Shown: positions 2,198 to 19,749, counted from the stretch's first letter. The stretch is 32,000 nt of DNA from Polyangiaceae bacterium (GCA_050300635.1 JBNKYC010000014.1:194175-226174), one strand, 5' to 3'. The notes: generated by a model from the letters alone, not told the origin. Numbers and translations: made by a program.

Positions 2198-3507
2198 CAT
2201 TTGATCACCACTTCAGACGCCTGATCACCACCATGATCACCACTTGAGGCTTCGGCGGCCTTTTTAGCCCGCTTGGTCATCAAGTTCACCACCTTGCCTA
2301 AGCCCACCTGCTGCTCCTCACCGCGCACCGTCGAGTAGTGGTGCTGCATCCTCTCGGTCAGATGCCCGCTGATGCTGTGGGTCACCAAATCTTGGACTTC
2401 GGCGGCTCGAGCCAGGTCATTGAAGGTGCGGCGCATGCCATGCTGGGTGAAGGCGTAGCCTAGACCCATTTCTTCTGACACTTCGGCAAAGGGCTTGTTG
2501 AGGACGCTAGGGCTGCGGAATCCGCCGGTGAGGGCAGGGAAGAGCAGCTCTGAATCCTTTTGGGCGTCCGCTGTCAGTTGGTCTTCCACGTGCCAGCGCA
2601 GGACGCGAATCACTTCGATAGGCAAGTGGATGCTGTAGCGGGTCTTCTGCTTGGTGGTGTTGAGCACCAAATCACCTCGGGTTTGCGAGCGTCTGACGAG
2701 CAGACGCCCTTCGTCCCAAGGGACATCCGCATTCTCTCCCATGCGGCGCAGGGGACGCATGGTCGATGGGCGAAGCCCGGTACAGAACCCCAGGAAAGCC
2801 ATGGCGTAGTGCTGCGGGTGCAGCTCGCGCAGGAGCTCCAAAAAGACAGGGACCTGCTCGGGAGCGAGGCTATGTGGTGCTTCTTCTGAATAGGTGACGT
2901 GGTCTGAGGTGTCGAAATCACGCACGTCCTCGGTGGGCGAGCGCGAGAGTTCAAATTGACGAACAGCGGCCTTCATGATCACCCGCAGGATGGAAAGCCA
3001 TCCGTTTGCGGTGTTGGGCGAGTAGTCGCCCAGTGCGATCAAGGTCGCCACCCCTTCGCGCCAGCGGTCGACGTGACCCACACGGATCTCATCGACAGCC
3101 AGTTCTCCGAAGCCAGGGACGAAAAAGTCTTCGTCCTTGCTGTGCGTGCCCGCGATGAGATGGTTGAGCGAATGCTTCCACCTATCGCGACCTGCGGGAC
3201 TACGAATGTCTCTCGTCTGGATCTTTTTCTCCAGCAAGGACACCGCGAAGTCGCCGAAGCGCTGCTTCGGAATGGGGTCCGATCCTGTTTGTGACTGGAG
3301 TCGAACTTTCTCGTCCTCCAACCACTCGAAGGCTAACCTCTCCGTTTCCACGTCGAGAACCTTTCTGATCTCGCGCAGCTTCCCGGTCATCGAATCTTTC
3401 ACTCGGGCGCGCACGACGTAGCCTCCTCCTTTCTTCTCGAATACGCCGGGCAGGCGAGTCGGCCTCACCCAGCTGGTTCCTAGTTTCTTGTACTTCTTCT
3501 TGTCCAT
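2197..3507 (-). CDS. int: Tyrosine recombinase / phage-type integrase
   Basis: The ORF contains a C-terminal catalytic-type region (...GLRPSTMRPLR...HGMRRTFNDLA...GHLTERMQHHY). I set the start at MDKKKYKKLGTSW, which has AAGGAG 7 nt upstream, rather than at the track's 3567. Confidence 0.85.
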   Translation of the reverse strand: MDKKKYKKLGTSWVRPTRLPGVFEKKGGGYVVRARVKDSMTGKLREIRKVLDVETERLAFEWLEDEKVRLQSQTGSDPIPKQRFGDFAVSLLEKKIQTRDIRSPAGRDRWKHSLNHLIAGTHSKDEDFFVPGFGELAVDEIRVGHVDRWREGVATLIALGDYSPNTANGWLSILRVIMKAAVRQFELSRSPTEDVRDFDTSDHVTYSEEAPHSLAPEQVPVFLELLRELHPQHYAMAFLGFCTGLRPSTMRPLRRMGENADVPWDEGRLLVRRSQTRGDLVLNTTKQKTRYSIHLPIEVIRVLRWHVEDQLTADAQKDSELLFPALTGGFRSPSVLNKPFAEVSEEMGLGYAFTQHGMRRTFNDLARAAEVQDLVTHSISGHLTERMQHHYSTVRGEEQQVGLGKVVNLMTKRAKKAAEASSGDHGGDQASEVVIK

Positions 3508-3805
3508 CGGGGACTCCTTCAGTTGAAGGCGCACCCGGACGATCCGAGTACAGGTTACCACCGGCACTTCCCGTCAAGAACCGGTCGAGTTCGGCACGCT
3601 CGAATACATGGGTCCCGCGTCCGCCGCGCCGCCCCGCTGCAGCGAGACGCCCCTCCTTCAGGGCCTTCCGGATGGCCCCTGTTGTCCTGAACCCACAATA
3701 CGCAGCAGCCTCCCTCGTCGTGAGGAAAGGCGAGCGAACCGCACCTCCGGCTTCAACCGAACGATGCTGCGCTAGTGGATTTTCGCGGCGTGCCATTGCT
3801 CCCAA
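3200..3805 (-). CDS. xis: Excisionase-family HTH protein (only the N-terminal ~75 aa are recognisable)
   Basis: FLTTREAAAYCGFRTTGAIRKALKEGRL...HVFERAELDRFL resembles excisionase/MerR-type HTH domains. The frame then stays open for about 300 nt across the int start, so the true 3' end and extent are uncertain. Confidence 0.5.
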   Translation of the reverse strand: MGAMARRENPLAQHRSVEAGGAVRSPFLTTREAAAYCGFRTTGAIRKALKEGRLAAAGRRGGRGTHVFERAELDRFLTGSAGGNLYSDRPGAPSTEGVPDGQEEVQETRNQLGEADSPARRIREERRRLRRARPSERFDDREAARDQKGSRRGNGEVSLRVVGGRESSTPVTNRIGPHSEAALRRLRGVLAGEKDPDERHS

Positions 3806-6878: not shown

Positions 6879-7397
6879 TCAGATCATTCCGTAGGCTTCC
6901 AAGTACGGAAGCCATTCTTCCGGGACGCGGCCGCGGCGCGCGTCGACCATCCCAATCGGGAGGGCCTTGGGCCGCACTGGCTCCATCAGCGGGAACATCC
7001 CCGCTTCGTCACAGCTCAGATTGGCCTTCTTGTTGTTGCAACGCTGACACGCAGCAACGATGTTCTCGAACGTTCGAGGCCCGCCGTGACTCCGAGGAAC
7101 CACATGGTCCATCGTGAGATCACTTCCGGGCAGATGAGCTCCGCAGTACTGGCAGCGGAACTTATCGCGGATCTTCACATTGTGGTCCGAGTACTTGATC
7201 CCCTTCTTGAAACGGGGAGTCATGTGCCGCAGGCGAATGACGGCAGGCACGTTCCAGGTCACGGACGGGGAAGAGACCGTCTCTGAATACTCAGCAATGA
7301 CATCGACCGTTTCCTCGTAGGTCATCTTGATTGCGGCCTGCCAAGGAACCACCTTTATCGGGAAGTACCAGGCCGTGAGGAGCAGTGAATTTCGCAT
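6879..7397 (-). CDS. HNH endonuclease (small McrA/COG1403-like)
   Basis: The motif reads CQYCG...LTMDHVVPRSHGGPRTFENIVAACQRCNNKKAN. The start is set at MRNSLLL, with AAGGAGG upstream. The track's longer N-terminus runs into a non-coding repeat. Confidence 0.8.
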   Translation of the reverse strand: MRNSLLLTAWYFPIKVVPWQAAIKMTYEETVDVIAEYSETVSSPSVTWNVPAVIRLRHMTPRFKKGIKYSDHNVKIRDKFRCQYCGAHLPGSDLTMDHVVPRSHGGPRTFENIVAACQRCNNKKANLSCDEAGMFPLMEPVRPKALPIGMVDARRGRVPEEWLPYLEAYGMI

Positions 7398-7432
7398 CAC
7401 GGCCTCCTTTCCTTTGTTGGTGCGATTGACTG

Positions 7433-7560
7433 TTTCTTTCAGGAGGGCAGAGGCCCTCCTCGTCGCGGGAAGTGAATCCCGGCTCCTCACCTCCACCCAA
7501 GCGACGTGCGCTCCGGCGCCTCCCACTTGGTCGGCGGCGGTACTCGCGCTCTCGTCCCGG
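7433..7560 (-). repeat. Copy 1 of a ~125-bp repeated non-coding element (leader-like, ends ~36 nt before the HNH start)
   Basis: About 88% identical to 8692-8818. Minus-strand hairpins GGAGGGC-CTCT-GCCCTCC and CGGGA-TTCACT-TCCCG are present. Confidence 0.7.
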
Positions 7561-7739
7561 CGCTACCGAGCCTCGTCCTGCCGGTCGCGGAAGACGGGCC
7601 CCGACGCTCCCCGGGCGGAAGGGCGCAGGAAACCACCGGCGACTAAGTAGGAGCCGCTGGATTTCCAGCGGAAGGTGGGGAGGAGAAGCGGAGATTCACT
7701 CTCCGCGACGGAGGGGACGCCGTCCCCTCAAAAAACGAG

Positions 7740-7813
7740 TAGAGCACATGGGAGTTGAACCCATCGCAGGTCCCTTATCAGGAGACCCAGATCAAACCGG
7801 ATCGTCGTGCTCA
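7740..7813 (-). tRNA. tRNA-Ile(GAU)
   Basis: Anticodon arm GTCTC-CTGATAA-GGGAC, T arm ATGGG-TTCAACT-CCCAT. The acceptor forms 6 bp with a U1-U72 mismatch. No CCA is encoded. Confidence 0.65.
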
Positions 7814-7814
7814 G

Positions 7815-7962
7815 TGCTGTCGGCGGGAGTCGTGGCCGAGCCCCGCTAGGGGCGAGCCCCACCGAGATAGTGCGATCGAAGAACGCACTATCGAAGGTCA
7901 CCCGCAATGCCGTGCGGCACGCCGTCTCAGGGCGCTGTGTATGCCTGTTCCACCACGACAGC
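7815..7962 (-). tRNA. tRNA-Leu(GAG)-like, abnormally long (148 nt)
   Basis: Perfect 7-bp acceptor GCTGTCG/CGACAGC with A73. Anticodon arm GCGCC-CTGAGAC-GGCGT and a type II variable arm CCGCA-CGGCAT-TGCGG. About 75 extra nt of hairpins precede the 3' strand, including the motif CTCGGCCACGACTCC. Confidence 0.45.
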
Positions 7963-7963
7963 G

Positions 7964-8081
7964 TGGTACACGCCCTCGGATTCGTGGCCGAGGACGTAGT
8001 CCGAGTCCCGCCGAGCGAAGCGACGGCCACCAGACTTCCCGGGCTTAAACCGGGCACCTCTACCGATTGGGTTAGGCGTGC
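7964..8081 (-). tRNA. tRNA-Leu(UAA), long (118 nt), CCA encoded
   Basis: Acceptor GCACGCC/GGCGTGT followed by ACCA. Anticodon arm CCCGG-TTTAAGC-CCGGG. The variable region is 45 nt and the T arm is CTCGG-CCACGAAT-CCGAG with an 8-nt loop. Confidence 0.55.
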
Positions 8082-8085
8082 CGAG

Positions 8086-8167
8086 CGGAAGGTAGAGAAA
8101 TCGAACCACGCACCTCTCGGTGCCCCTGGTTTTCAAAACCAGTTCGCCTCCATAGGCGGTACCTTCC
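8086..8167 (-). tRNA. tRNA-Ser(UGA)
   Basis: Perfect acceptor GGAAGGT/ACCTTCC with G73. Anticodon arm CTGGT-TTTGAAA-ACCAG and variable arm GCACC-GAGA-GGTGC. The T stem has two mismatches. Confidence 0.6.
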
Positions 8168-8169
8168 GG

Positions 8170-8241
8170 ATGAGGTGACAGGAATTGAACCCGCATCGCC
8201 GGGTTCAAAGCCCAGGGTCTTGACCGTTAGACGACACCTCA
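8170..8241 (-). tRNA. tRNA-Gln(UUG)
   Basis: Perfect acceptor TGAGGTG/CACCTCA, D arm GTCT-AACGGTCA-AGAC, anticodon arm CTGGG-CTTTGAA-CCCGG, T arm GCGGG-TTCAATT-CCTGT. Confidence 0.8.
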
Positions 8242-8394
8242 GAAGTTTTCTTCGCTGCGCAGGCAGCGACGCGCTCAGCACCGCCGACGAGCAAGCCCCA
8301 TTGCGAGTCGCCGGAGCGCCCGCGGAGTTGGGGGGAGGCTCACGCAGCGCTCTGCGCAGAGTGAGGGGGGCTGCATCAGCCCCCGATGAAACAG

Positions 8395-8463
8395 TCGCGA
8401 CGGAAGTATTCGAAACTTCATGCGAGCCCGTATGAAAGGCTGCTCCGACCCTCGGTCGCCGCG
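8395..8463 (-). tRNA. tRNA-Met(CAU), short (69 nt) with a reduced D arm
   Basis: Acceptor CGCGGCG/CGTCGCG, anticodon arm AGCCT-TTCATAC-GGGCT, T arm GAAGT-TTCGAAT-ACTTC. The D region is only CCGA-GGG-TCGG plus a 3-nt connector. A competing 10-bp hairpin lies at 8447-8477. Confidence 0.5.
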
Positions 8464-8540
8464 GTTGCGAGGGTCGGTAATGCTCCGATCTGATCTCCGG
8501 GCCATGAACCCGACGAGCCACTTTTGCTCCATCCTCGCGG

Positions 8541-8613
8541 CGTTTCGGCCAGGACTCGAACCTGAATTTCAGCCTTCGCAGGGCTGCGTCCTGTCCAGTT
8601 GGACGACCAGAAC
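8541..8613 (-). tRNA. tRNA-Arg(GCG)
   Basis: D arm GTCC-AACTGGACA-GGAC, anticodon arm CAGCC-CTGCGAA-GGCTG, T arm TCAGG-TTCGAGT-CCTGG. The acceptor has one mismatch. Confidence 0.75.
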
Positions 8614-8618
8614 AATCG

Positions 8619-8691
8619 CGTTCTCGGCAGGAGTCGAACCTGCACCCATCCGCTTAGAAGGCGGCTGCCCGTCCAATCGAGCCTCGAGAAC
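8619..8691 (-). tRNA. tRNA-Arg(UCU)
   Basis: Perfect acceptor GTTCTCG/CGAGAAC, anticodon loop CTTCTAA, T arm GCAGG-TTCGACT-CCTGC. Confidence 0.8.
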
Positions 8692-8818
8692 TTGTCTTTT
8701 CAGGAGGGCAGAGGCCCTCCTCGTCGTCGGGAGTGAATCCCGACTCCTCACCTCCACCCCTGCGACGTGCGCTCCGGCACCTCCCACTTGGTCGGTGGCG
8801 GTGCTGGCGCTCTCATCA
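8692..8818 (-). repeat. Copy 2 of the ~125-bp repeated element (its end abuts the 5' end of tRNA-Arg(UCU))
   Basis: It aligns with 7433-7560. The internal hairpin is TCGGGA-TTCAC-TCCCGA, with changes at the stem ends that extend the pairing relative to copy 1. Confidence 0.7.
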
Positions 8819-8932
8819 TCGCTTCGCGGTGCTTCGTCCTGGCGGGCGCCGGGCATAAGGGCAGGCCGCAGAACCCGTGAGGGTTCGAGGACCTCGACAA
8901 AAGTTACGGCACGCAGCACACCCGTGGAGGAG

Positions 8933-8983
8933 AGCCGAAGAGGTTTCGCCCTCACTTGTGATGGGGCGGAAACTCGTAGGCCT
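8933..8983 (-). repeat. Copy A of a ~50-nt conserved motif
   Basis: GCCGAAGAGGTTTCGCCCTCACTTGTGATGGGGCGGAAACTCGTAGGCC, compared with 10740-10789. Confidence 0.6.
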
Positions 8984-9058
8984 CCCCCACGGGCAAGCAG
9001 AGTGAAGCGCCATCGTGCACAGTTCGTCGATAAAGGCCGACGGACACGCTGCGCTCGG

Positions 9059-9126
9059 AGATCCGAGTGAGAGTCAAACTCACCCTCGCTGCTTTGCAAC
9101 CAGCGTCGTCCTCGGGACATCGGATC
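9059..9126 (-). tRNA. Short (68 nt) tRNA with a GCA-containing anticodon loop (Cys-like; identity ambiguous)
   Basis: Perfect acceptor GATCCGA/TCGGATC, D region GTCC-CGA-GGAC, anticodon stem CGCTG/CAGCG with the 9-nt loop GTTGCAAAG, a 3-nt variable region, and T arm GTGAG-TTTGACT-CTCAC. Confidence 0.45.
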
Positions 9127-9131
9127 ATTCG

Positions 9132-9203
9132 TACAAGTGGAGGGAATCGAACCCCCGTATCCTGGGTGGAAGCCAGGCATCTTGGCCGCTGGATCACACT
9201 TGC
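9132..9203 (-). tRNA. tRNA-Gly(UCC)
   Basis: Acceptor GCAAGTG/CACTTGT, anticodon arm CCTGG-CTTCCAC-CCAGG, T arm GGGGG-TTCGATT-CCCTC. Confidence 0.75.
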
Positions 9204-9204
9204 T

Positions 9205-9280
9205 TGGAGCCTCTATCGGGATTCAAACCCGAGTCTCTGCCTTACCGGGGCAGCGTTCTGCTCGACTGAACTATGGAGGC
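9205..9280 (-). tRNA. tRNA-Thr(GGU), CCA encoded, C at position 33
   Basis: D arm GTTC-AGTCGAGCA-GAAC, anticodon arm CTGCC-CCGGTAA-GGCAG, T arm TCGGG-TTTGAAT-CCCGA, 3' end TAGAGGC-T-CCA. Confidence 0.7.
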
Positions 9281-9284
9281 ACGG

Positions 9285-9351
9285 AGCCTTATCCCGGAAT
9301 CGAACCGAGTCAGATTGAGTACGAAACAATCCACTTTCCAAAAGCTAAGAC
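9285..9351 (-). tRNA. tRNA-Thr(CGU), short (67 nt) with a reduced D arm
   Basis: Anticodon arm ATTGT-TTCGTAC-TCAAT with a U-U closing pair, T arm CTCGG-TTCGATT-CCGGG, D region CTTT-TGG-AAAG plus TGG. The acceptor pairs at 6 of 7 positions. Confidence 0.5.
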
Positions 9352-9360
9352 AGCACTTTG

Positions 9361-9433
9361 TACACGCTCCCAGATTCGAACTGGGACCTCTCGGGTCTGA
9401 GCCGAGCGCCTCTGCCAGTTGGGCTAAGCGTGC
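9361..9433 (-). tRNA. tRNA with Leu anticodon CAG but a type I (4-nt variable loop) body
   Basis: It folds as GCACGCT TA GCCC AACTGGCAG AGGC G CTCGG-CTCAGAC-CCGAG AGGT CCCAG-TTCGAAT-CTGGG AGCGTGT A. The 5' half is a close paralogue of the Leu(UAA) gene. Confidence 0.65.
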
Positions 9434-9435
9434 AT

Positions 9436-9507
9436 TGGTGGAGCCGTCGGGAATCCAACCCGCAAGCTCTCTGTGCAAGAGAGAGCCGTAGCGCACTACA
9501 CAACCCC
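9436..9507 (-). tRNA. tRNA-Cys(GCA), compact, CCA encoded
   Basis: Anticodon arm CTCTC-TTGCACA-GAGAG. The acceptor GGGGTTG/CGGCTCC has three G-U pairs. D region GTAG-TGCG-CTAC, 3-nt variable region, T loop TTGGATT. Confidence 0.55.
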
Positions 9508-9512
9508 ATCAG

Positions 9513-9578
9513 CAGACCCACAAGGAATCGAACCCTGTCGACAACGGATTTGGAGTCCGTCCGGCGGCCGTCCGATCC
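9513..9578 (-). tRNA. tRNA-Trp(CCA)-like, very short (66 nt)
   Basis: Anticodon arm ACGGA-CTCCAAA-TCCGT and T arm CAGGG-TTCGATT-CCTTG. Only 11 nt lie between the acceptor and the anticodon stem. The acceptor is weak, with three G-U pairs and one mismatch. Confidence 0.4.
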
Positions 9579-9583
9579 CAATC

Positions 9584-9621
9584 GTGCAATGCGAAACGGA
9601 CGCGAGTCCGTGAAGCTGCAC
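9584..9621. repeat. Left copy of a ~38-nt inverted repeat pair (partner at 11308-11346)
   Basis: The reverse complement GTGCAGCTTCACGGACTCGCGTCCGTTTCGCATTGCAC aligns with GTGCAGCTTCACGGACTAGCGTCCGTTCCGCTTTGTCAC. The first 17 nt are identical. Confidence 0.75.
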
Positions 9622-9636
9622 ATGCGATACTACTGA

Positions 9637-9704
9637 CTAAATAAAGGCGCGTCGCGTGTCCTGCGGTAGCAGGCCCCTTTCAATCGCACCGATCCGCGAC
9701 GCGC
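9637..9704 (-). terminator. Terminator-like structure just after tRNA-His
   Basis: On the minus strand a 10-bp stem GCGCGTCGCG/CGCGACGCGC encloses a CCTGC-TACC-GCAGG hairpin and is followed by CTTTATTT. The 38-nt loop is atypical for a terminator. Confidence 0.35.
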
Positions 9705-9705
9705 G

Positions 9706-9773
9706 GGGTGTTGCTGAGGATCGAACTCAATAACCCGGGTCACAACCGAGTTTGCCCCCAGGGCGACAACACC
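9706..9773 (-). tRNA. tRNA-His(GUG), short (68 nt) with a reduced D arm
   Basis: Perfect acceptor GGTGTTG/CAACACC with C73. Anticodon arm CTCGG-TTGTGAC-CCGGG, T arm TTGAG-TTCGATC-CTCAG, D region GCCC-TGG-GGGC plus AAA, 3-nt variable region. No G-1 is encoded. Confidence 0.55.
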
Positions 9774-9774
9774 A

Positions 9775-9861
9775 TGGCGGAAGCTGGACGAGTCGAACGT
9801 CATTCCTTTCGGAACGCACCGATTAGCAGTCGGGCCAAGCGCCACCGCCTGTTCAGCTTCC
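9775..9861 (-). tRNA. tRNA-Ser(GCU), CCA encoded
   Basis: Perfect acceptor GGAAGCT/AGCTTCC followed by GCCA. Anticodon loop CTGCTAA, variable arm TTCC-GAAA-GGAA, T loop TTCGACT. Confidence 0.7.
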
Positions 9862-9865
9862 GTAG

Positions 9866-9937
9866 TCGGAGACCTGGGGGTCGAACCCAGCAGCACACGG
9901 TCCCAAGCCGCGCGGCACACCCCGTGCCTTGACTCCG
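9866..9937 (-). tRNA. tRNA-Pro(UGG)
   Basis: C1-G72 and A73. Anticodon arm CGCGG-CTTGGGA-CCGTG, T arm CTGGG-TTCGACC-CCCAG, compact D arm GGCAC-GGGGT-GTGCC. Confidence 0.7.
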
Positions 9938-9942
9938 AATAG

Positions 9943-10015
9943 TGGATCCCCTCAGTTTCGAACTGAGCTCTCCTGTTCTTCAGACAGGCGCTTTCACCAG
10001 ATTAGCTTGAGATCC
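9943..10015 (-). tRNA. tRNA-Phe(GAA)
   Basis: It folds as GGATCTC AA GCTA ATCTGGTGA AAGC G CCTGT-CTGAAGA-ACAGG AGAG CTCAG-TTCGAAA-CTGAG GGGATCC A. Confidence 0.8.
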
Positions 10016-10019
10016 GTAG

Positions 10020-10092
10020 TACTCGGGGCCGGGAACGATCCAGCAACCGTCTCCTTGTAAGGGAGCTGCGCTACCAATTGCGCCACCCGAGC
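10020..10092 (-). tRNA. tRNA-Val(UAC) with an unusual T loop
   Basis: D arm GCGC-AATTGGTA-GCGC, anticodon loop CTTACAA, T arm GCTGG-ATCGTTC-CCGGC (A54/U58 in place of U54/A58), acceptor GCTCGGG/CCCGAGT. Confidence 0.7.
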
Positions 10093-10093
10093 T

Positions 10094-10169
10094 TGGCGCT
10101 TCGTACGGGAATCGAACCCGTCTCCAAGTGATCGACAATCACCCTGCCTCCCCAGCGGCATCACGAAGC
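10094..10169 (-). tRNA. tRNA-Asp(GUC), CCA encoded
   Basis: Perfect acceptor GCTTCGT/ACGAAGC followed by GCCA. D arm TGCC-GCTGGGGA-GGCA, anticodon loop TTGTCGA, T arm ACGGG-TTCGATT-CCCGT. Confidence 0.85.
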
Positions 10170-10173
10170 ATTC

Positions 10174-10311
10174 ACGCGCCGTAGGGTCACAGACCCGAAG
10201 GCCCGTAAGAAACATGGCGCGTAGCAATTCTGCCCACCAGACCGGAGTGTTCCGTCCTCACCCTTCCGGGGGGCGGAACACGCAGGTCAATGTGTGGCAA
10301 GCAGAATGCAG
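10174..10311 (-). other. Two stem-closed structured elements between tRNA-Asp and tRNA-Glu (not foldable as tRNAs)
   Basis: At 10174-10222 the ends ACGCGCC/GGCGCGT pair around GGCC-TTCG-GGTC and GGGTC-TGT-GACCC hairpins. At 10223-10311 the ends GCATTCTGC/GCAGAATTGC pair around an 8-bp GTGTTCCG/CGGAACAC hairpin. Confidence 0.3.
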
Positions 10312-10383
10312 CACCCCCTGTCGGTATCGATCCGACTCTTTCAGGTTGAAAACCTGACGACCTAGCCAGTAGTCGAAGGGGGC
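10312..10383 (-). tRNA. tRNA-Glu(UUC) with an unusual T loop
   Basis: It folds as GCCCCCT TC GACT ACTGGCTA GGTC G TCAGG-TTTTCAA-CCTGA AAGA GTCGG-ATCGATA-CCGAC AGGGGGT G. Confidence 0.75.
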
Positions 10384-10392
10384 ATAGTTGAC

Positions 10393-10461
10393 TCGCGTGG
10401 CTACGCGACCCGCCTTCGGCGGGCTCGTCGACCTTCATGGACTCCGTCCACCAAGGTGGAC
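10393..10461. other. Cluster of three GC-rich hairpins, including a tandem GTGGACGGAGTCCAC motif
   Basis: The hairpins are TCGCGT-GGCT-ACGCGA, CCCGCC-TTC-GGCGGG and GTCCAC-CAAG-GTGGAC. The 13-mer GGACTCCGTCCAC occurs twice (10439-10451 and 10458-10470). Confidence 0.5.
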
Positions 10462-10475
10462 TCCGTCCACTACGG

Positions 10476-10556
10476 TTCCGGGGGCAGGAATCGTGGCCGA
10501 GCGAAGCGAGCCCCGCCGAGCGGAGCGAAGGCCACCCGCACACGTCGGGCCCCAGG
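10476..10556 (-). other. tRNA-like element sharing the CTCGGCCACGATTCC motif of the long Leu genes
   Basis: Ends CCTGGGG/CCCCGGA pair at 6 of 7 positions, with a C1-A72 mismatch. It has a CCCG-ACGTGTG-CGGG hairpin and a GCGGG/CCTGC stem around an internal GTGGCC...GGCCAC hairpin. No D arm is present. Confidence 0.25.
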
Positions 10557-10562
10557 AGCTTG

Positions 10563-10634
10563 CTTCGGGGATAGGACTCGAACCTATATGAACTCGCTTA
10601 ACAGGCGAGTGCCTTACCAATCGGCCACCCCGAA
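10563..10634 (-). tRNA. tRNA-Asn(GUU)
   Basis: Perfect acceptor TTCGGGG/CCCCGAA with G73. Anticodon arm CTCGC-CTGTTAA-GCGAG, T arm ATAGG-TTCGAGT-CCTAT. Confidence 0.85.
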
Positions 10635-10739
10635 TCATCGCCACACCCTCCTCGGCTAATTGACTTCCAAGCGGCCGCAGGACCTTCGGGTCCGAGGACC
10701 AAAAGAAACAGTTGGCGGGAAGCACACTCAATCAAGAAG

Positions 10740-10789
10740 GCCGAAGAGTACCGCCCTCACTCTGTGATGGGGCGAGACTCGTAGGCCCG
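10740..10789 (-). repeat. Copy B of the ~50-nt conserved motif
   Basis: GCCGAAGAGTACCGCCCTCACTCTGTGATGGGGCGAGACTCGTAGGCC, compared with 8933-8983. Confidence 0.6.
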
Positions 10790-10891
10790 GATGTGGCGAG
10801 CAAAAAATTGCTGAGTATTCAGTTGTCACGGATCAGGAGGAGCGAATGCTCCTGTGACTTGCGAAACGAAGCGTTTCACCTCGTTTCGCAG

Positions 10892-10963
10892 TGGATCTGG
10901 AGGGACTCGAACCCTCGTCCAACCGGGTAAGAACCGGCGACTCTGCCGCTGAGTTACAGATCC
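10892..10963 (-). tRNA. tRNA-Lys(CUU)
   Basis: Perfect acceptor GGATCTG/CAGATCC, D arm ACTC-AGCGGCA-GAGT, anticodon arm GCCGG-TTCTTAC-CCGGT, T arm GAGGG-TTCGAGT-CCCTC. Confidence 0.85.
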
Positions 10964-10967
10964 AAGG

Positions 10968-11005
10968 CCCGGATGAGGTGCCTCCTTGTGTTCACCTCAT
11001 CCGGG
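10968..11005. other. 13-bp perfect hairpin between the two Lys tRNA genes
   Basis: CCCGGATGAGGTG-12 nt-CACCTCATCCGGG. Confidence 0.7.
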
Positions 11006-11036
11006 GAAACGACACTGGATGTGCCGTGGAATTGAG

Positions 11037-11109
11037 TGGGACCAGGGGGCTTCGAACCCCCACCCCCTCGATTAAAAGTCGAGTGCGCTACCAGTTACGC
11101 CACAGTCCC
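11037..11109 (-). tRNA. tRNA-Lys(UUU)
   Basis: It folds as GGGACTG TG GCGT AACTGGTA GCGC A CTCGA-CTTTTAA-TCGAG GGGGT GGGGG-TTCGAAG-CCCCC TGGTCCC A. Confidence 0.85.
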
Positions 11110-11196
11110 AAGTCCAAGCTTGTGACTGCGTTTCTTCATTCGATACATAGTTCTCTCCTGTTCGCGCTCGAGATCGAGCGCGCAATTCACCCTTCG

Positions 11197-11279
11197 TGGA
11201 GCCCCCGAGATTCGAACTCGGCAAGCGCGCTGCGCAGCGGGGTTACAATCCGCTTGAGGTCCCGAGCCTCATGAGCTCC
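11197..11279 (-). tRNA. tRNA-Tyr(GUA), type II
   Basis: Acceptor GGAGCTC/GGGCTCC with A73. D arm GAGG-CTCGGGA-CCTC, anticodon loop TTGTAAC, variable arm GCGC-AGC-GCGC, T arm CCGAG-TTCGAAT-CTCGG. Confidence 0.75.
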
Positions 11280-11307
11280 ATCCTGACTTCAGTCGATGTT
11301 CTGAAGC

Positions 11308-11346
11308 GTGCAGCTTCACGGACTAGCGTCCGTTCCGCTTTGTCAC
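11308..11346. repeat. Right copy of the ~38-nt inverted repeat pair (partner at 9584-9621)
   Basis: See 9584-9621. It contains the hairpin ACGGAC-TAGC-GTCCGT. Confidence 0.75.
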
Positions 11347-11657
11347 TCCAAATCGCTGAGGGCCGCCTTGGTTTCCCAGGGCGGCCCTTCTGCGACACGA
11401 ATGTCTCAGTGGAATGCCAGCCTAGGTATTCTCTCCCCAGGGAGAGCCCAAATCCGTAGCTAGGATGAAGCCCGTGGGCTGTTCACACGCGGACAGCGCC
11501 AATGCACCAACGAGATCCTTCTCGTTCAGATACGCTGCACCTAAATCAAGCGCAGTAGGCCGAAGCTCTGCTTGCGTACTTCTATGGTTCGTCGGTTTCG
11601 TCATCGAGCTTGTGCTCCTAGTTCGGACACCCTCATTGGCATCACGGCGGGGCACAA

Positions 11658-11673
11658 TGCGAGGGGCGTGCCA
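11658..11673 (-). promoter_or_regulatory. Candidate sigma54 (-24/-12) promoter pointing into the tRNA array
   Basis: The minus strand reads TTGGCACGCCCCTCGCATT, i.e. TGGCAC-N5-TCGCA. It lies between the rtcR stop (11755) and tRNA-Tyr (11279). Confidence 0.5.
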
Positions 11674-11727
11674 ACTCTTCTGAACTGAGCTTTTGCCGAC
11701 AAAACTGAAGTTGCATCGCAGTTCGAC

Positions 11728-11743
11728 ATATCTGTACAGATAT
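11728..11743. promoter_or_regulatory. 16-bp perfect palindrome, candidate enhancer-binding (UAS) site
   Basis: ATATCT-GTAC-AGATAT, centred about 64 bp upstream of the -24 element at 11668-11673. It has the same half-site and spacer length as 13340-13355. Confidence 0.45.
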
Positions 11744-11754
11744 TTTTCTATCTC

Positions 11755-13338
11755 TTAGGATATGTCATCCCAGGACAGAGAGTATCGGTTCAAGTACTTC
11801 CGCACCCGGTCTGCGTCATTGACCGACGAACGCCTCTTTCGGGATTCGGCGAATAGAGTGCGGCCTGCCTCCGAAAGAGAGTTTGAGTCCACGCACACCC
11901 GCAGAACCTCGGCCAGCTGAACCCGGTCAAACAGATCAAGGTCGGCGATGACATCGGCTCCGAGGAACCGCGAGAGGATATCGTCCCCCTCCTCACCGCC
12001 TGGCCGCTCCCACGACTCTTTCAGGCGTTCGATCTCTTCCTTGACACCAGCCGCTGTGATCCTGCCCCCCTCTGCGAGGGTCGCCATGCGCTCAAAAGCG
12101 GCACTGTAGTCGCGAAAGTTGCCAGACCAGCTAGTGGACGGCGCCTTGGCAAAATCGAGAAATAGCTTACGGGCCTCACGGTTCATGGTGACGCGTTCGC
12201 CGTGCGTTTCTGCCCATCGCTCAGTTTCGTATTCGAGGTTGGGCTCCATATCCTCGGGCCTATCCCTCAGAGCGGGGAGATGGAACGCCCACAGATTGAT
12301 GCGAGCGAGAAGGTCATCGCGAAAAGTCCCCTGAGCCACAGAGCCGCGCAGATCGCGGTTGGTCCCGCTGATCAGCTGGAAGTCGCTCTCCGCCTCTCGA
12401 TCGGCGCCAACAGGAAGGAACCTCTTCTCCTCGATGGCGCGAAGGAGCATGGCCTGCTCCTCAAGTCCGAGCTCGCCAATTTCATCGAGAAAGAGGATGC
12501 CGCCGTTGGCCTCACGGAGGAGACCCTCACGTGGGCCTGACGCGCCAGTGAACGCGCCCTTCTTATGCCCAAAGAGGGCACTCATGGCGCCGTCGCCTCG
12601 GATAGTGGCACAGTTCACCTCGACAAAGGGCCCGGAAACCTGGCCGCGCAGCTTCTTTAGCTCATAGACCCGTCGCGCCAAATGGCTCTTGCCAGCGCCG
12701 GTCGGACCCATCAAGAGCAGGGGGGACTTCGATGCAATGGCGACCTGCTCGATGCGGTCGATTTGCTTGTTGAACGCCTTGTTCTTTGTAGCGATTCCTG
12801 ACTTGAGGAAGTCCCGGCTCTCCCGCTGCTCGAGTTTGAACCGAGACGCGAGCTTGTCGTACTTGGACAGGTCAAGATCGATGACGCTATAGGAGCCAAC
12901 ATTCCCCTTTTGCCGGGATGGACTCGTCTGAAGCAGCTGACCTGGGATGTGGCGAGACTCCGTCAGCAAGAACTGGCAAATCTGAGCTACGTGCGTCCCG
13001 GTCGTGATGTGGACAAGGTACCTTTCCTTGCTCTGCTTGAACGAGTACTTGGAGGCAAAGTCGTGGAGCGCTGCATAGACCTCCTCAAAGTCCCAGGGGT
13101 CGGTGGTCTCAAGGTGATGCGGACACACCTGGGTTTCGGGCGAGACGGAACGAATATCCTTTGTGATCTGCTCAGCCAGCTTCTCGAACTTCGACTGGTA
13201 CAGAAGCTCGAACCGGTCGACGACCAAGTCCTCGTGCCGACACACGTCAACGGTCGGACGCCACTGAAGCCAACGGTCGCCCCGCTTCTTCATGGCATCC
13301 AGAGTCACGCCCAACATCCCGATGACGACAGTTTTCAT
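11755..13338 (-). CDS. rtcR: Sigma54-dependent transcriptional activator RtcR (CARF-like N-domain, AAA+ domain, C-terminal DNA-binding region)
   Basis: Walker A LLMGPTGAGKSHLA and the GAFTGA motif (HKKGAFTGA). The N-terminal ~185 aa resemble the RtcR sensor domain. The gene is divergent from rtcBA. Confidence 0.85.
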   Translation of the reverse strand: MKTVVIGMLGVTLDAMKKRGDRWLQWRPTVDVCRHEDLVVDRFELLYQSKFEKLAEQITKDIRSVSPETQVCPHHLETTDPWDFEEVYAALHDFASKYSFKQSKERYLVHITTGTHVAQICQFLLTESRHIPGQLLQTSPSRQKGNVGSYSVIDLDLSKYDKLASRFKLEQRESRDFLKSGIATKNKAFNKQIDRIEQVAIASKSPLLLMGPTGAGKSHLARRVYELKKLRGQVSGPFVEVNCATIRGDGAMSALFGHKKGAFTGASGPREGLLREANGGILFLDEIGELGLEEQAMLLRAIEEKRFLPVGADREAESDFQLISGTNRDLRGSVAQGTFRDDLLARINLWAFHLPALRDRPEDMEPNLEYETERWAETHGERVTMNREARKLFLDFAKAPSTSWSGNFRDYSAAFERMATLAEGGRITAAGVKEEIERLKESWERPGGEEGDDILSRFLGADVIADLDLFDRVQLAEVLRVCVDSNSLSEAGRTLFAESRKRRSSVNDADRVRKYLNRYSLSWDDIS

Positions 13339-13339
13339 G

Positions 13340-13355
13340 TTATCCGTGAGGATAT
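13340..13355. promoter_or_regulatory. Dyad related to 11728-11743, candidate UAS
   Basis: TTATCC-GTGA-GGATAT, centred about 105 bp upstream of the rtcB -24 element. It directly abuts the rtcR start codon. Confidence 0.45.
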
Positions 13356-13450
13356 GCTCTTATCTCCTTGAATCCAGGCACGAAGACCCCAATCAGAGTT
13401 CTCTGCATTATTTCAGCGATTTGCGCGCGAGTCGGTCGAGGCGCTGAACT

Positions 13451-13466
13451 TGGCACAACGTCTGCA
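13451..13466 (+). promoter_or_regulatory. Sigma54 (-24/-12) promoter of the rtcBA operon
   Basis: TGGCAC-AACGT-CTGCA in the rtcR-rtcB intergenic region, oriented toward rtcB. Confidence 0.7.
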
Positions 13467-13609
13467 AAGTCTCGGTCACGCTTCTGAAGCTCAACGCGGC
13501 AGAGCACCGGAAAAACACAGGACAAGCCGGGCCTCGAAGGAGGCATGTGGAACCCAGGCGACTGGGGAGCGGCAACGGTTAACAGATTGCACCGAACAGG
13601 GTCCGAGAG

Positions 13610-13685
13610 GGTTCTGAAGGGAAGCAGGTTCCCGAAAGGCCGCCTCATCCACGTGGAGTGGGTTCGATCCCCACCAGAAGCACCA
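13610..13685 (+). ncRNA. tRNA-like element in the rtcB 5' leader (ends in ACCA; no anticodon stem)
   Basis: It folds as GGTTCTG AA GGGA-AGCAGGT-TCCC ... GTGGG-TTCGATC-CCCAC CAGAAGC A CCA. The 24 nt in the anticodon position (GAAAGGCCGCCTCATCCACGTGGA) form no 5-bp stem. A perfect alternative 5' strand GCTTCTG lies at 13483-13489 near the predicted TSS. Confidence 0.5.
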
Positions 13686-13723
13686 GCCATCAAGTTGATT
13701 GTCACTTAGACTGGAGAGAAGAA

Positions 13724-14947
13724 ATGAGTACCTACGAACTGCGCGAACCTCACGGCGGCGTTCCGATCAAGACCTGGACCAAGGGCGTGCCCGTGGAACC
13801 AGAGGCTGTTGATCAGCTCACCAACATCGCGCGCCTGCCCATCGTCCACAAGTGGGTCGCGGCCATGCCGGACGTTCACCTGGGGATCGGTGCGACCGTA
13901 GGCAGCGTTATCCCCACCGTGGGAGCGGTGATTCCTGCAGCAGTCGGCGTGGATATCGGCTGCGGAATGATGGCCGTGGAAACCACGCTGAAGGCCAGCG
14001 ATCTTCCAGATAACCTCGGCCCCATGCGAAGCACCATCGAACGAGCAGTCCCCCATGGGCGCGGACGGTCCGGGCGTCGCGGGGACAAAGGTTCTTGGAG
14101 CGACGTTCCGAACCGCGTCGGAAAGGTCTGGAAAGGGCTAGAATCTGGCTTCAAAGCCATCGTCGACAAGCATCCAGGCGTCGAGAAGAGCAACAATGTC
14201 GTTCATCTCGGGACGCTCGGAACCGGAAACCACTTCATCGAGGTTTGCCTCGATGAAAAGGACAACGTCTGGTTCATGCTGCACAGTGGCTCACGCGGAG
14301 TAGGAAACCGCATCGGTTCGCACTTCATCGCCCTGGCGAAGAAGGACATGCAGCGTCATCAACAGCATCTGCCCGACGCCAACCTTTCCTACTTTGAGGA
14401 AGGGAGCGAACACTTCCACGACTACGTGGAAGCCGTCGAGTGGGCGCAGAGCTTCGCGCGTCATAACCGAGAACTCATGATGCACGCTGTACTCGATTCG
14501 GTTCGCCGGTTGCCCAAGTTTCCGTCTTTCCAAACGGCAAAGAGCGCCGTCAACTGCCACCACAACTACGTTTCACGCGAGTTCCACTACGGAAAGAACG
14601 TGTTCGTGACCCGCAAGGGAGCTGTGCATGCAGGTGAAGGCGTCCTGGGCATCATCCCCGGAAGCATGGGAGCTCGCTCCTACATTGTCCGGGGAAAGGG
14701 AAACCCAGAAAGCTTCTGTAGCTGTAGTCACGGAGCGGGGCGCGTGATGTCCCGTACCAAGGCAAAGAAGAAGTTCTCCTTGGAGGACCATCGCCGAGCG
14801 ACTGAAGGCGTCGAATGCCGCAAGGACAAGGACGTCATCGACGAAACGCCTGGTGCCTACAAGGACATCGACAAGGTGATGGAGGCCCAGAGTGATCTGG
14901 TCGAAATCCTCCACACGCTCAAGCAGGTGGTCTGCGTGAAGGGGTGA
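13724..14947 (+). CDS. rtcB: RNA-splicing ligase RtcB (3'-phosphate/5'-hydroxyl RNA ligase)
   Basis: Typical RtcB sequence blocks (IARLPIVHKWVAAMPDVHLGIGATVGSV, GTLGTGNHFIEV, HSGSRGVGN, NCHHNY, SCSHGAGR). The start is set at MSTYELREP with GGAGAG upstream. The track's 13658 start overlaps the tRNA-like element. Confidence 0.92.
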   Translation: MSTYELREPHGGVPIKTWTKGVPVEPEAVDQLTNIARLPIVHKWVAAMPDVHLGIGATVGSVIPTVGAVIPAAVGVDIGCGMMAVETTLKASDLPDNLGPMRSTIERAVPHGRGRSGRRGDKGSWSDVPNRVGKVWKGLESGFKAIVDKHPGVEKSNNVVHLGTLGTGNHFIEVCLDEKDNVWFMLHSGSRGVGNRIGSHFIALAKKDMQRHQQHLPDANLSYFEEGSEHFHDYVEAVEWAQSFARHNRELMMHAVLDSVRRLPKFPSFQTAKSAVNCHHNYVSREFHYGKNVFVTRKGAVHAGEGVLGIIPGSMGARSYIVRGKGNPESFCSCSHGAGRVMSRTKAKKKFSLEDHRRATEGVECRKDKDVIDETPGAYKDIDKVMEAQSDLVEILHTLKQVVCVKG

Positions 14948-17762: not shown

Positions 17763-18896
17763 TCACCCCATCGCCTCAATCATCTCGAACGCGAATCTGT
17801 CCACCCATTCGTGGTCCACCTCACCAGGGAGCTTCGACTCGCTCGCCGCTTTCTTCATGCGCGTCTCGAGGCGTTCAGATTCCTCGACCAGCTTCTCGTA
17901 AGGCCAAGCGCCTTCACGTATGCGCATGAGTTCTTCGGCGTCGGCTCGGCGCACCAGGAGCTTTCCCGATTCGACTACCTCCAGACCGGTTCGCATCAGC
18001 CGAACGAGGTGAGCGCCGTGCTTCGTATCGAAACCGTGTTTGGCCTCTAGCGCCGCACGCGCCGGATTGCGATTTCTCTTCCAGGCTTGGTACGCGTCCC
18101 ACTGCTTCATCGCACCCCGGTACTTTTTCTCGGCATTCAGTGCCTGGACGACCCCGGCTGGAAGCTGCAGACCGTGGCTGGCGACTGCTCTGAGGCGCTC
18201 TTCCAGGTCGTCAGGGCTAGCCGCAACCGCATCACTCATGAACTCGGCGAGATGCGCCTGGACTTCGATGCGCAGGTCAGCGGGCATGTCGATGTTGTTT
18301 AGTCCGTAGGCCCGAACTCGATCGGCGAGGGCCTGCTCGATACGGTTCTGGTCATCTCTCCCCACGGTCCCGCTCTCAGGGAGACCGAACTCGCCTCGCG
18401 AGGGCTTCTGCTTTGGGGGTGCGAGCAGCCAAGAGCGGTGCGCCTTGATCTTCTTGAGCTGAGCGGTGGCGTAGCCCAGATACGTTTGCGCAATACGCTT
18501 GGTCAGAAAGCGGTCGCGAACCTCGAACAACCTTGCCCACAGCGGAGCCGAGTAGACCCAGTCGCGCTCATCCGCGAAAAGAATTTCGAGCGCGTTTGGG
18601 TTTGCCGACGCGCAGAGCTTCAGGAACTTCGCCACATCGAAGACGACCGACTCGACCTTGTGGCTGAGCCCATGCTGCGCTGTCTGATGGGCCTGGAGCT
18701 TGGGCAGAATCGACTGCCAGAGTTCCTTGGGCAGTTTCTCCTCGCTTTGATCGAAGCTGCGAAACAAGGAGCAGCGCACCGAGAGAGGAGCGACGCAGAC
18801 CCCTCGAAGGTCGACATCACTGCCGGAGGTCGCCGTGCCGCGCGCCTGACTACCGGCAAGCGTGACGAAGATCGTTCGTTCACTCAGAAACGTCAC
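17763..18896 (-). CDS. RlaP-type (PF10127-like, Pol-beta superfamily) nucleotidyltransferase, long form
   Basis: LAGSQARGTATSGSDVDLRGVCVAP nucleotidyltransferase motif. Its start overlaps the stop of the upstream paralogue (ATGA). Confidence 0.65.
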   Translation of the reverse strand: MTFLSERTIFVTLAGSQARGTATSGSDVDLRGVCVAPLSVRCSLFRSFDQSEEKLPKELWQSILPKLQAHQTAQHGLSHKVESVVFDVAKFLKLCASANPNALEILFADERDWVYSAPLWARLFEVRDRFLTKRIAQTYLGYATAQLKKIKAHRSWLLAPPKQKPSRGEFGLPESGTVGRDDQNRIEQALADRVRAYGLNNIDMPADLRIEVQAHLAEFMSDAVAASPDDLEERLRAVASHGLQLPAGVVQALNAEKKYRGAMKQWDAYQAWKRNRNPARAALEAKHGFDTKHGAHLVRLMRTGLEVVESGKLLVRRADAEELMRIREGAWPYEKLVEESERLETRMKKAASESKLPGEVDHEWVDRFAFEMIEAMG

Positions 18897-19675
18897 GTCG
18901 ACCTTTCCAGGCGAACTCGAACGACGAAGTCGTCAAGCGCTTCCTTCGCAGCCGGCTCATCCGGCAGCGAACTCGATTCATGCGCCTTCTGGAGTCGTTC
19001 CTCCAGTCGGTCCAGGTACTTCTCGTGGCTTTCGACTTCCCCGTCCTGGAGCCTCATCTTCTCGGCCCCCTGACGCTTCCTCTCCACGAGGTCCTCGATC
19101 TCGCGAAGACGATAGGCATCATTGAGCGAGGTCAAATTCGCCTCGATACGCCCGGTCTCCATGAGATGGATCCCCGAAAGGTAAACCCGGTAGGCGTACA
19201 AGAGGTGCTTCACCGTAGGCTCCGGCTCATGAAGCCTCTTCCGGCGTCCCCGAGCAAACCCCTGATAGTGGCGCACCATCGGCCGAGTGATGCAGCCTTT
19301 CCCGAGTTCCATCAGTTCTTCGTGGAGCCCAGTCGTCACAACTACGAGCGGCGAGTACAGCTGCTCCATGACGTAGCCATTGTGGCTCACCATCATCTTG
19401 GCGAACTTCCGCAGGTCGTGCGCTACCCAATCGAGCTCAATTGTCGAGTTATCCTCGATGGTGATGGTCTCTTTCAGAGGATGGATCGAAAGCAGTTCCT
19501 TCGCGCTCAGAAGGAACGCACCTCGGAGGTCCACATCGCTATCCGGTGAGGCGAATCCGTAGAGATGGGCGCCACTGATGGTCGCAAAGACGGGGTAGGG
19601 TCCATCAGCAGTGATCTTCGCCAGGTGCTCCTTGTCGAGCATGGACCAGACTTCGGCAATTGCTTGTTCGTCCAT
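18893..19675 (-). CDS. RlaP-type (PF10127/YcgL-like) nucleotidyltransferase
   Basis: ISGAHLYGFASPDSDVDLRGAFL motif. The start is set at MDEQAIAEVW with GGTGAGG upstream. Confidence 0.7.
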   Translation of the reverse strand: MDEQAIAEVWSMLDKEHLAKITADGPYPVFATISGAHLYGFASPDSDVDLRGAFLLSAKELLSIHPLKETITIEDNSTIELDWVAHDLRKFAKMMVSHNGYVMEQLYSPLVVVTTGLHEELMELGKGCITRPMVRHYQGFARGRRKRLHEPEPTVKHLLYAYRVYLSGIHLMETGRIEANLTSLNDAYRLREIEDLVERKRQGAEKMRLQDGEVESHEKYLDRLEERLQKAHESSSLPDEPAAKEALDDFVVRVRLERST

Positions 19676-19749
19676 AATGTACCTCACCCTCTCATGTCGA
19701 AGGAGGGTAGGAGTTTCGACTGCATGCCTGCAAGGGCTCAAGCGGCCAA

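Follow-up and report, generated by a model that had tools for sequence, protein, structure and literature searches.

What does a sigma-54-type promoter do in front of an array of tRNA genes, a class of genes that is sigma-70-driven and growth-rate-controlled? The question is raised by a 32,000-nucleotide stretch of DNA from a Polyangiaceae bacterium (GCA_050300635.1 JBNKYC010000014.1:194175-226174; the whole stretch is called the window below), in which rtcR, the gene for a sigma-54 activator, is flanked on one side by the rtcB operon with its promoter P1 and on the other by 20 tRNA genes. The original prediction, made from the sequence alone, held that a second sigma-54-type promoter, here called P2, points from the rtcR side into the tRNA array. 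Our analysis leads us to favor the view that P2 is probably a second RtcR-activated promoter, one that would make a leader RNA and read on into the array. By sequence and comparison among related loci, the predicted promoter, its putative activating sites and the leader are a conserved unit; the start point, activation by RtcR, read-through and processing are what we infer from that unit. The features on which the argument turns are the following.

11673..11658, minus strand: P2 core, the sigma-54 -24 and -12 elements, TGGCACGCCCCTCGCA (motif scans and weight matrix)
11645..11648, minus strand: predicted transcription start of P2, 12 nt past the C of the -12 GC, standard spacing
11755..13338, minus strand: rtcR, sigma-54 activator with a CARF-type sensor domain (Pfam RtcR, 1.7e-81; Sigma54_activat, 1.1e-48)
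13451..13466, plus strand: P1, sigma-54 promoter of the rtcB operon, TGGCACAACGTCTGCA (motif scan; 20.9 bits)
7739..11279, minus strand: array of 20 tRNA genes, Tyr to Ile (ARAGORN)
11279..11196, minus strand: tRNA-Tyr, first gene of the array (ARAGORN)

P2 is the best sigma-54 promoter match in the window

The P2 core, TGGCACGCCCCTCGCA, departs from TGGCACG-N4-TTGCW at a single position, and its GG and GC are ten bases apart, which is the correct spacing. It begins 82 nt past the rtcR stop codon and faces tRNA-Tyr, and in this respect the original prediction stands; P2 does not directly precede a tRNA gene, as a leader of ~290 nt comes first. With up to one mismatch allowed, TGGCACG-N4-TTGCW was found once in the window, at P2, against 0.28 expected, and TGGCAC-N5-TNGCW was also found only at P2, against 0.09 expected. 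When two mismatches were allowed, the first pattern gave 5 matches against 4.5 expected. The warning that such a motif can arise by chance thus applies to its loose form and not to its strict form.

We next scored the window with a 28-column weight matrix trained on 30 rtcB-side sigma-54 promoters from other rtcR loci, with the closest relatives excluded. The training promoters themselves score 15.6-32.1 bits, and 300 random 32-kb sequences with the window’s dinucleotide make-up served as the null. P2 scored 23.8 bits, inside the training range and the highest value on either strand of the window, followed by P1 at 20.9 bits and by the next site at 11.6 bits. The best score of a random sequence averaged 10.8 bits (sd 3.0), and 23.8 bits was reached in 0/300. 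This scoring against a random background, proposed as a check along with the original prediction, bears out two of its statements: that TGGCACAACGTCTGCA at 13451-13466 is the rtcB promoter, and that P2 fits the sigma-54 pattern about as well as that promoter does. Two weak sigma-54-like sites were also seen, CGGCACGCCTTTCGCA at 1410-1425 on the minus strand (11.4 bits) and TGACACGGTGGCGGCA at 21116-21131 on the plus strand (11.6 bits); with a random mean of 10.8 bits, both are probably due to chance.

Palindromes shared by P2, P1 and other rtcR loci

Enhancer-binding proteins are expected to have their sites roughly 70-150 nt upstream of a sigma-54 promoter. Pattern scanning, together with a footprint alignment in the case of P2, gave a candidate activating sequence for each of the two promoters.

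11729..11762: P2 upstream activating sequence, two palindromes, TATCTGTACAGATA (11729-11742) and TATCTCTTAGGATA (11749-11762)
13341..13365, plus strand: P1 upstream activating sequence, TATCCGTGAGGATATGCTCTTATCT, abutting the rtcR start codon and conserved in the related loci L001-L007

The P2 palindromes are centred ~64 and ~84 nt upstream of the -24 GG, and the second overlaps the rtcR stop codon. In the 32-kb window their shared pattern, TATCY-N4-RGATA, was found at exactly three places, where chance would give 0.01: twice before P2 and once before P1, where the third copy (TATCCGTGAGGATA, 13341-13354) lies ~105 nt upstream of the rtcB promoter. A longer tripartite pattern, TATCY-N4-RGATA-N6-TATCT, fits both the P2 and the P1 regions, with 3 matches against 0 expected.

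To see how widely this pattern accompanies rtcR, we drew on a scan for RtcR that took one genome per species and returned 80 loci, eight of which (L001-L008) are Polyangiaceae/Myxococcales loci whose RtcR is 73-94% identical to that of the window. The palindrome, with at most one mismatch, was present within 120 nt of the rtcR start in 53/76 loci, against 0.012 expected per such window. In these loci it sits 16-57 nt upstream of the start, often with an extra TATCT half-site 6 nt off, and its carriers include Myxococcota, Planctomycetota, Sphingomonadales, Chlorobi-like bacteria and many Gammaproteobacteria, among them an enterobacterium (L044). From this co-occurrence we infer that TATCY-N4-RGATA is the RtcR box, the putative binding site of RtcR; our search of the literature found no paper defining an RtcR DNA box. 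The RtcR encoded in the window contains KKGAFTGA, and so keeps the GAFTGA loop through which such activators contact sigma-54 intact; the window has no rpoN gene. Two putative boxes at the right distance from P2 are the strongest single argument for P2 as a target of RtcR. Taken with the promoter match and with the conservation described next, they make it very probable that P2 is an RtcR-dependent sigma-54 promoter.

P2 is invariant where rtcR has diverged

Six further short contigs carrying the leader element were added to the locus set through protein look-ups, and ten loci in all, the window among them, have P2 together with the leader. The P2 core, TTGGCAC-N5-TCGCA, is invariant in 10/10 of these. 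Over rtcR, comparison of the window with L001, L002 and L003 showed ~70% divergence at synonymous sites (pS ~0.7) with pN/pS of 0.06-0.09. Because rtcR synonymous sites have diverged this far between the same genomes, the invariance of P2 goes beyond what recent common descent would leave. The footprint alignment from the rtcR stop to +1 gave the same picture at finer scale, in that conservation is limited to the palindrome half-sites and the -24/-12 elements, the ~50 nt between them having diverged.

Among L001-L008, a sigma-54 motif on the rtcR strand beyond the rtcR stop is found in 6/8, directly after the stop in L001, L003, L004, L005 and L008 and 1.4 kb downstream in L002. One of the short metagenome contigs, L082 (58-330), has an ORF resembling a zf-HC2 anti-sigma factor instead of rtcR ahead of P2 and the leader. 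This contig becomes similar to L001 only from ~45 nt ahead of the promoter onward and lacks an RtcR box; either the locus has truly been rearranged or the contig is an assembly chimera.

The predicted first product of P2 is a structured leader with an open frame

In sigma-54 promoters of standard spacing, transcription starts ~12 nt after the GC of the -12 element. This would put the P2 start near 11647 on the minus strand, 2-5 nt before a conserved hairpin. The stretch from near 11647 to 11360 is common to 10/10 loci, and as the predicted first product of P2 it would be a leader RNA of ~290 nt with the following parts.

11626..11643, minus strand: 5'-terminal hairpin, GAUGCC-N6-GGUGUC (helix 1 in RNAalifold)
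11422..11619, minus strand: ribosome-binding site AGGAG (11619-11615) and 60-codon frame, ATG 11604 to TAG 11422
11390..11409, minus strand: invariant 3' block, CUGAGACAUUCGUGUCGCAG, a UUCG-loop hairpin, identical in 9 loci and with one change in L003
11360..11387, minus strand: terminal GC-rich hairpin of 11 pairs, GGGCCGCCCUGG-GAAA-CCAAGGCGGCCC, the leader end

The 5' hairpin reads GAUGCC-N6-GGYRUC across loci, with changes only from U.G to U-A and from G.U to G-C, and in L003 it is GAUGC-N6-GCAUC. The window leader folds better than its shuffles (z = -2.5), and in the consensus fold 95% of cells pair. Compensatory changes were confined to one hairpin (5 pairs), in an alignment of few and very similar sequences, and the other helices are invariant or altered on one side only. 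We accordingly set covariation aside as proof of structure, as the sequences are too few and too similar and only one hairpin is informative; a secondary structure of the leader is plausible on this evidence.

The frame is the second conspicuous feature of the leader. Of nine aligned loci, seven retain AGGAG and the other two, L001 and L002, have GGGAG; the ATG is present in 9/9. Frame 1 is free of stops in 10/10 loci (nine scored together, and the 60-aa ORF of L083 separately), and frames 2 and 3 have 1-5 stops each. Among close relatives the sole indel within the frame is one of 18 nt, with single-base indels falling outside it, and in L003 the frame is 30 nt longer. The encoded peptide behaves otherwise: variable columns are spread evenly over the codon positions (23/24/25), pN/pS is ~0.5-1.3 in most pairs, and pS against the window is 0.15-0.23. 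For comparison, rtcR has 16-35, 16-35 and 264 variable columns over the three positions, a pN/pS of 0.06-0.12 and a pS of ~0.7. There is thus neither the excess of third-position changes nor the pN/pS well below 1 that purifying selection on the peptide would give, whereas the open frame, its start codon and its ribosome-binding site have been maintained. The even spread over codon positions, the low pS and the lack of stops together indicate a constraint at the level of nucleic acid, with the frame kept open and the peptide unconstrained.

The leader has no match among known families. The 60-residue frame belongs to no Pfam family and has only 8 close homologues among 5.8 billion proteins. 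Exact-pattern scans of metagenome contigs and viral contigs for the invariant 3' block CUGAGACAUUCGUGUCGCAG gave zero matches, and nhmmer with the leader alignment over 87 sequences found nothing past the ten loci. A search of the window against Rfam at the gathering threshold returned tRNAs only, and a permissive Rfam scan of 11150-13800 gave nothing meaningful for either the P2 leader or the leader of rtcB described below.

Does transcription from P2 reach the tRNA genes?

The original prediction spoke of a sigma-54-dependent tRNA operon. The first half of that proposal, an enhancer-dependent promoter, held up well, given the RtcR boxes and the recurrence of the promoter in 10/10 loci; transcription of the array from P2 is the conditional half. 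It turns on what lies between the leader and the first tRNA gene.

11280..11359, minus strand: conserved spacer from the terminal hairpin to tRNA-Tyr, with hairpin ACGGAC-GCUA-GUCCGU (11333-11318)

tRNA-Tyr follows the leader in 7/10 loci. The spacer of ~80 nt is conserved in the window, L082, L083, L084 and L086; because it is conserved as a hairpin, with GNNA variants in the loop, it looks like transcribed RNA and not like a promoter. L001 and L081 lack the spacer, and since tRNA-Tyr there follows the terminal hairpin after only ~23 nt, these loci have no room for a separate promoter. A sigma-70 scan of 7000-14000 in the window found no sigma-70-like site, and by eye the conserved spacer contains neither a -35/-10 pair nor an ECF-type pair. 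In the window the stem is followed by TCAGCGAUUU, with no U tract, the tail of the hairpin (UCAGCGAUUU) having interrupted T runs only, and a terminator scan of the window did not call the hairpin at 11387-11360. The hairpin could possibly be a weak terminator or a protective 3' hairpin. These features, along with the one-strand order of P2, leader, tRNA, HNH and SPFH genes and the use of this promoter position for RlaP repair genes in relatives (both described below), lead us to lean toward a P2 transcript that reads through into the tRNA array.

Several observations weigh against this reading. The terminal hairpin has a pairing probability of ~1.0 in every fold, including those in which a ribosome footprint was masked, and it may stop most transcripts. 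Short T runs follow it in some relatives (TTTATCGC in L001 and L081, TTCTGCTTTT in L002). The leader occurs without an adjacent tRNA-Tyr in L002 and L085, from which it follows that it is a unit in its own right. In L003, ~350 nt separate the leader from the tRNA genes, with a second terminator-like hairpin between them. Array promoters of a myxobacterial or alternative-sigma type may escape a simple sigma-70 scan. As to activation, no palindrome was found near the second promoter, within the last 260 nt of rtcR, in L004, L005 and L008.

The interval in L003 (5108-5456) has some detail of its own. Its terminator-like hairpin, GAGGG-CAGG-CCCTC, is followed by GCTTTT, and a tRNA remnant, from a 3' half (beginning GGTTCGGATTCC), lies downstream of the leader hairpin and upstream of the first intact tRNA gene. 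It seems from this remnant that the tRNA-Tyr of the other loci has decayed in L003.

The alternative that survives best accepts P2 as real and has its transcript end at the terminal hairpin, so that the leader would be a small RNA, or the mRNA of a 60-residue peptide, and the array would have a promoter of its own. We consider this possible, if rather unlikely. It draws on the stability of the hairpin, on the T-rich stretches after it in several loci, on L002 and L085, where the leader stands alone and the T tract is at its best, and on the conserved ribosome-binding site and ATG of a frame that is open in 10/10 loci. It also has a myxobacterial precedent in Pxr, whose apparent sigma-54 promoter lies just downstream of the activator gene nla19 (PMC5568312). 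On the other side stand the ~23 nt that leave no promoter room in L001 and L081, the sigma-70 scan, the uncalled hairpin with no U tract after the window stem, the conservation of the spacer as an RNA hairpin and, for the mRNA version, a peptide without purifying selection.

It is improbable that the leader is a ribosome-sensing attenuator, in which stalling on the 60-codon frame under tRNA damage would set termination before the array. The frame is what speaks for such a device: it is open in 10/10 loci where the other frames have 1-5 stops, changes in length by in-frame steps (18 nt; +30 nt in L003) with single-base indels only outside it, and retains AGGAG or GGGAG and the ATG, and a free peptide with constrained synonymous sites is the pattern of a leader peptide within a regulatory RNA. 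However, when we masked a ribosome footprint anywhere along the RNA in four loci (the window, L001, L003 and L084), the terminal hairpin still formed with a probability of 0.995-1.0, and no antiterminator alternative appeared. The stop codon of the frame is ~35 nt upstream of the hairpin, and the hairpin has no proper U tract. Classical terminator/antiterminator attenuation was rejected on these folds.

That P2 is a chance match, or a non-productive sigma-54 site without a transcript of its own, is very improbable: the loose motif does arise by chance and E. coli has many intragenic sigma-54 sites that are non-productive (PMC4591121), but P2 is intergenic, has a score that no random sequence reached, is invariant in 10/10 loci against a neutral divergence of ~0.7, has its own pair of RtcR boxes and is followed, 2-5 nt past the predicted start, by the conserved 5' hairpin.

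A model for P2

In the model that we favor, RtcR would bind the two TATCY-N4-RGATA palindromes at 11729-11762 and, once bound, would open the complex of sigma-54 holoenzyme at 11673..11658, with transcription starting near 11647 on the minus strand. The first product would be the ~290-nt leader with its 5' hairpin, ribosome-binding site, 60-codon frame, UUCG hairpin and terminal hairpin. With no proper U tract behind it, the terminal hairpin would let a fraction of transcripts through into tRNA-Tyr and the other 19 tRNA genes, and read-through would probably extend to HNH and SPFH, which lie on that strand too. RNase P, by cutting at tRNA-Tyr, would set the leader apart as an RNA of its own, shielded by its 3' hairpin. 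On tRNA damage, P1 would thus supply a tRNA-like RNA with RtcB and RtcA for repair, and P2 would supply replacement tRNAs. More tentatively, and at less than even confidence, the whole may be a mobile repair-and-replace module in which RtcR senses cleaved tRNA halves and fires two divergent sigma-54 promoters, one for the ligase, the cyclase and a tRNA-like RNA, the other for the new leader RNA, a near-complete set of replacement tRNAs and the HNH and SPFH proteins.

The tRNA array and the genes downstream of it

The array places 20 tRNA genes in 3.54 kb and so falls within the definition of an L-array (at least 20 genes at no fewer than 2 per kb; PMC4758250). Of its ARAGORN tRNAs, 12/20 reach the Rfam tRNA gathering score. 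The array is collinear with the 21-gene array of L001, and tRNA gene number differs between close relatives (21, 7, 1, 0). tRNA-Met, Trp and Cys are missing from the window array, and that of L001 has four extra Leu genes and is without His and Thr-CGT. The window array also has gaps of 180-440 nt (e.g. 8692-9130, 10635-10890 and 10384-10561), where L001 has only short gaps or none. Just after tRNA-Tyr lies a near-perfect GC-rich palindrome, GCGCGCTCGA-TC-TCGAGCGCG (11156-11186, minus strand), conserved in L001, L003 and L086, which may serve RNA processing or structure within the array.

Two genes follow the array on the same strand.

6882..7526, minus strand: HNH endonuclease gene (Pfam HNH, 1.7e-16), at the same position in L001 and L003
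5011..6123, minus strand: SPFH/Band 7 gene (Pfam Band_7), in the same order in L001

The order P2, leader, tRNAs, HNH and SPFH on one strand is thus shared by the window and L001, and L003 has P2, leader, tRNAs and HNH. Linkage to HNH and RNA-repair genes, a further mark of L-arrays, is likewise seen in the window (HNH, rtcB, rtcA and two RlaP genes), in L001 and in L003. By the weight matrix, no sigma-54 site able to drive HNH, SPFH or the RlaP pair scored above 11.6 bits in the window, a value within the random-sequence range. In L001 the series continues on one strand through 21 tRNA genes, HNH and SPFH to two RlaP genes (9659-11568, plus strand), and in L004, L005 and L008 the sigma-54 site right after the rtcR stop is directly ahead of a RlaP gene. 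The RlaP pair of the window (17766-19741, minus strand) is convergent to rtcBA and has no sigma-54 site in front. The comparison suggests that an ancestral P2-RlaP operon has been rearranged, and the simplest history would be one in which an operon of P2 and RlaP was there first and later took up the leader, the array, HNH and SPFH. Just past the end of the cluster at which SPFH lies, we also noted a tyrosine-recombinase gene of the phage integrase family (2200-3567, minus strand) and a Y2-transposase-like ORF (529-1398, minus strand). Such neighbors would fit a placement of the entire tRNA and RNA-repair block on an integrative element.

The rtcB side

Between P1 and the likely rtcB start is a leader (13478-13692, plus strand) that resembles a tRNA. 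Its acceptor-type stem, GCUUCUG/CAGAAGC, runs into ACCA, its T arm reads GUGGG-GUUCGAU-CCCAC, and a large insertion lies between; the leader is conserved in L001 and L004, with a miniature version in L003. It resembles Y RNAs of the YrlA type; no Ro/Rsr gene was seen, and Rfam gave no family match. The start of rtcB is probably the ATG at 13724, not the GVG of the mechanically called ORF (13658).

Comparison with known systems

RtcR activates rtcBA, or rsr-yrlBA-rtcBA, in E. coli and Salmonella (Genschik 1998, as reported in PMC10272220; Hughes 2020, PMC7790460), and in Salmonella it oligomerises on 5' tRNA halves ending in a 2',3'-cyclic phosphate, so that the ligand is cleaved tRNA (PMC7790460). 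The system described here shares with the enterobacterial one the activator family (CARF-like RtcR domain, AAA+ domain and GAFTGA), the promoter class and the palindromic box, which P2 has in common with P1 and with 53/76 rtcR loci. The Salmonella operon has a non-coding first product, YrlA/YrlB; here the corresponding places are taken by the tRNA-like RNA at P1 and by the leader at P2. Unlike anything in the enterobacterial system, P2 is a second promoter, downstream of rtcR and on the rtcR strand, and its cargo would be a new leader RNA and then tRNA genes, not repair enzymes. In our literature search, no paper described RtcR acting at a second promoter or controlling a tRNA gene.

Within the same phylum, Pxr of Myxococcus xanthus is a 108-nt small RNA that controls development and apparently has a sigma-54 promoter downstream of nla19 (PMC5568312). 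Like Pxr, the P2 leader is a predicted multi-stem-loop RNA immediately downstream of a sigma-54 activator gene; unlike Pxr, it is ~290 nt long, with an open frame inside it and tRNA genes after it, and the two share no sequence or Rfam match. The second promoters of L004, L005 and L008 resemble P2 in position, as they too lie just past the rtcR stop on the same strand, in the same RtcR clade (79% identity). They differ in lacking an adjacent palindrome and in their cargo, the tRNA-repair gene RlaP (for its biochemistry, PMC12776372).

The closest precedent is the tRNA operon of Anabaena, which is co-regulated with rtcB through a repressor. L-arrays spread horizontally with an HNH gene conserved beside them, and in Anabaena PCC 7120 the trn array and rtcB are switched on together when translation is stressed (PMC8421152). 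There, the repressor TrcR controls a set made up of the array, rtcB, all8564 (an HNH gene) and a slipin gene, acting at sigma-70 promoters through direct repeats over the -10 box, and the authors point out that Anabaena lacks RtcR (PMC10272220). Neither of these papers mentions myxobacterial arrays. The unusualness that the original prediction attached to a stress-inducible tRNA set is tempered by this case, and what remains distinctive is the wiring. Both systems have an array of 20 or more, presumably supernumerary tRNA genes that probably sits on mobile DNA, an HNH gene beside it, a link to rtcB and a slipin/SPFH gene, such that the gene set of the Anabaena regulon is physically clustered in the window, and in both, by our proposal, tRNA supply would be induced upon damage to translation or to tRNA. 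The control proposed here would differ in being positive, enhancer-dependent and linked to rtcR, with a structured leader before the first tRNA, whereas Anabaena has no sigma-54.

What would be new, then, is the positive, enhancer-dependent wiring of a tRNA array to a sensor of tRNA damage, together with a new leader RNA whose frame is open and whose peptide is unconstrained. The palindrome also offers a candidate RtcR DNA-binding motif for use across phyla. If the model is correct, this would be the first tRNA operon to depend on sigma-54 and an enhancer, the RtcR regulon would extend beyond rtcBA, and cells would answer tRNA damage by replacement besides repair, through a direct loop from sensor to supply when anticodon nucleases or toxins strike. 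It would then be an independent, positively regulated counterpart to the repressor control of Anabaena, which would speak for damage-inducible sets of spare tRNAs as a recurrent solution.

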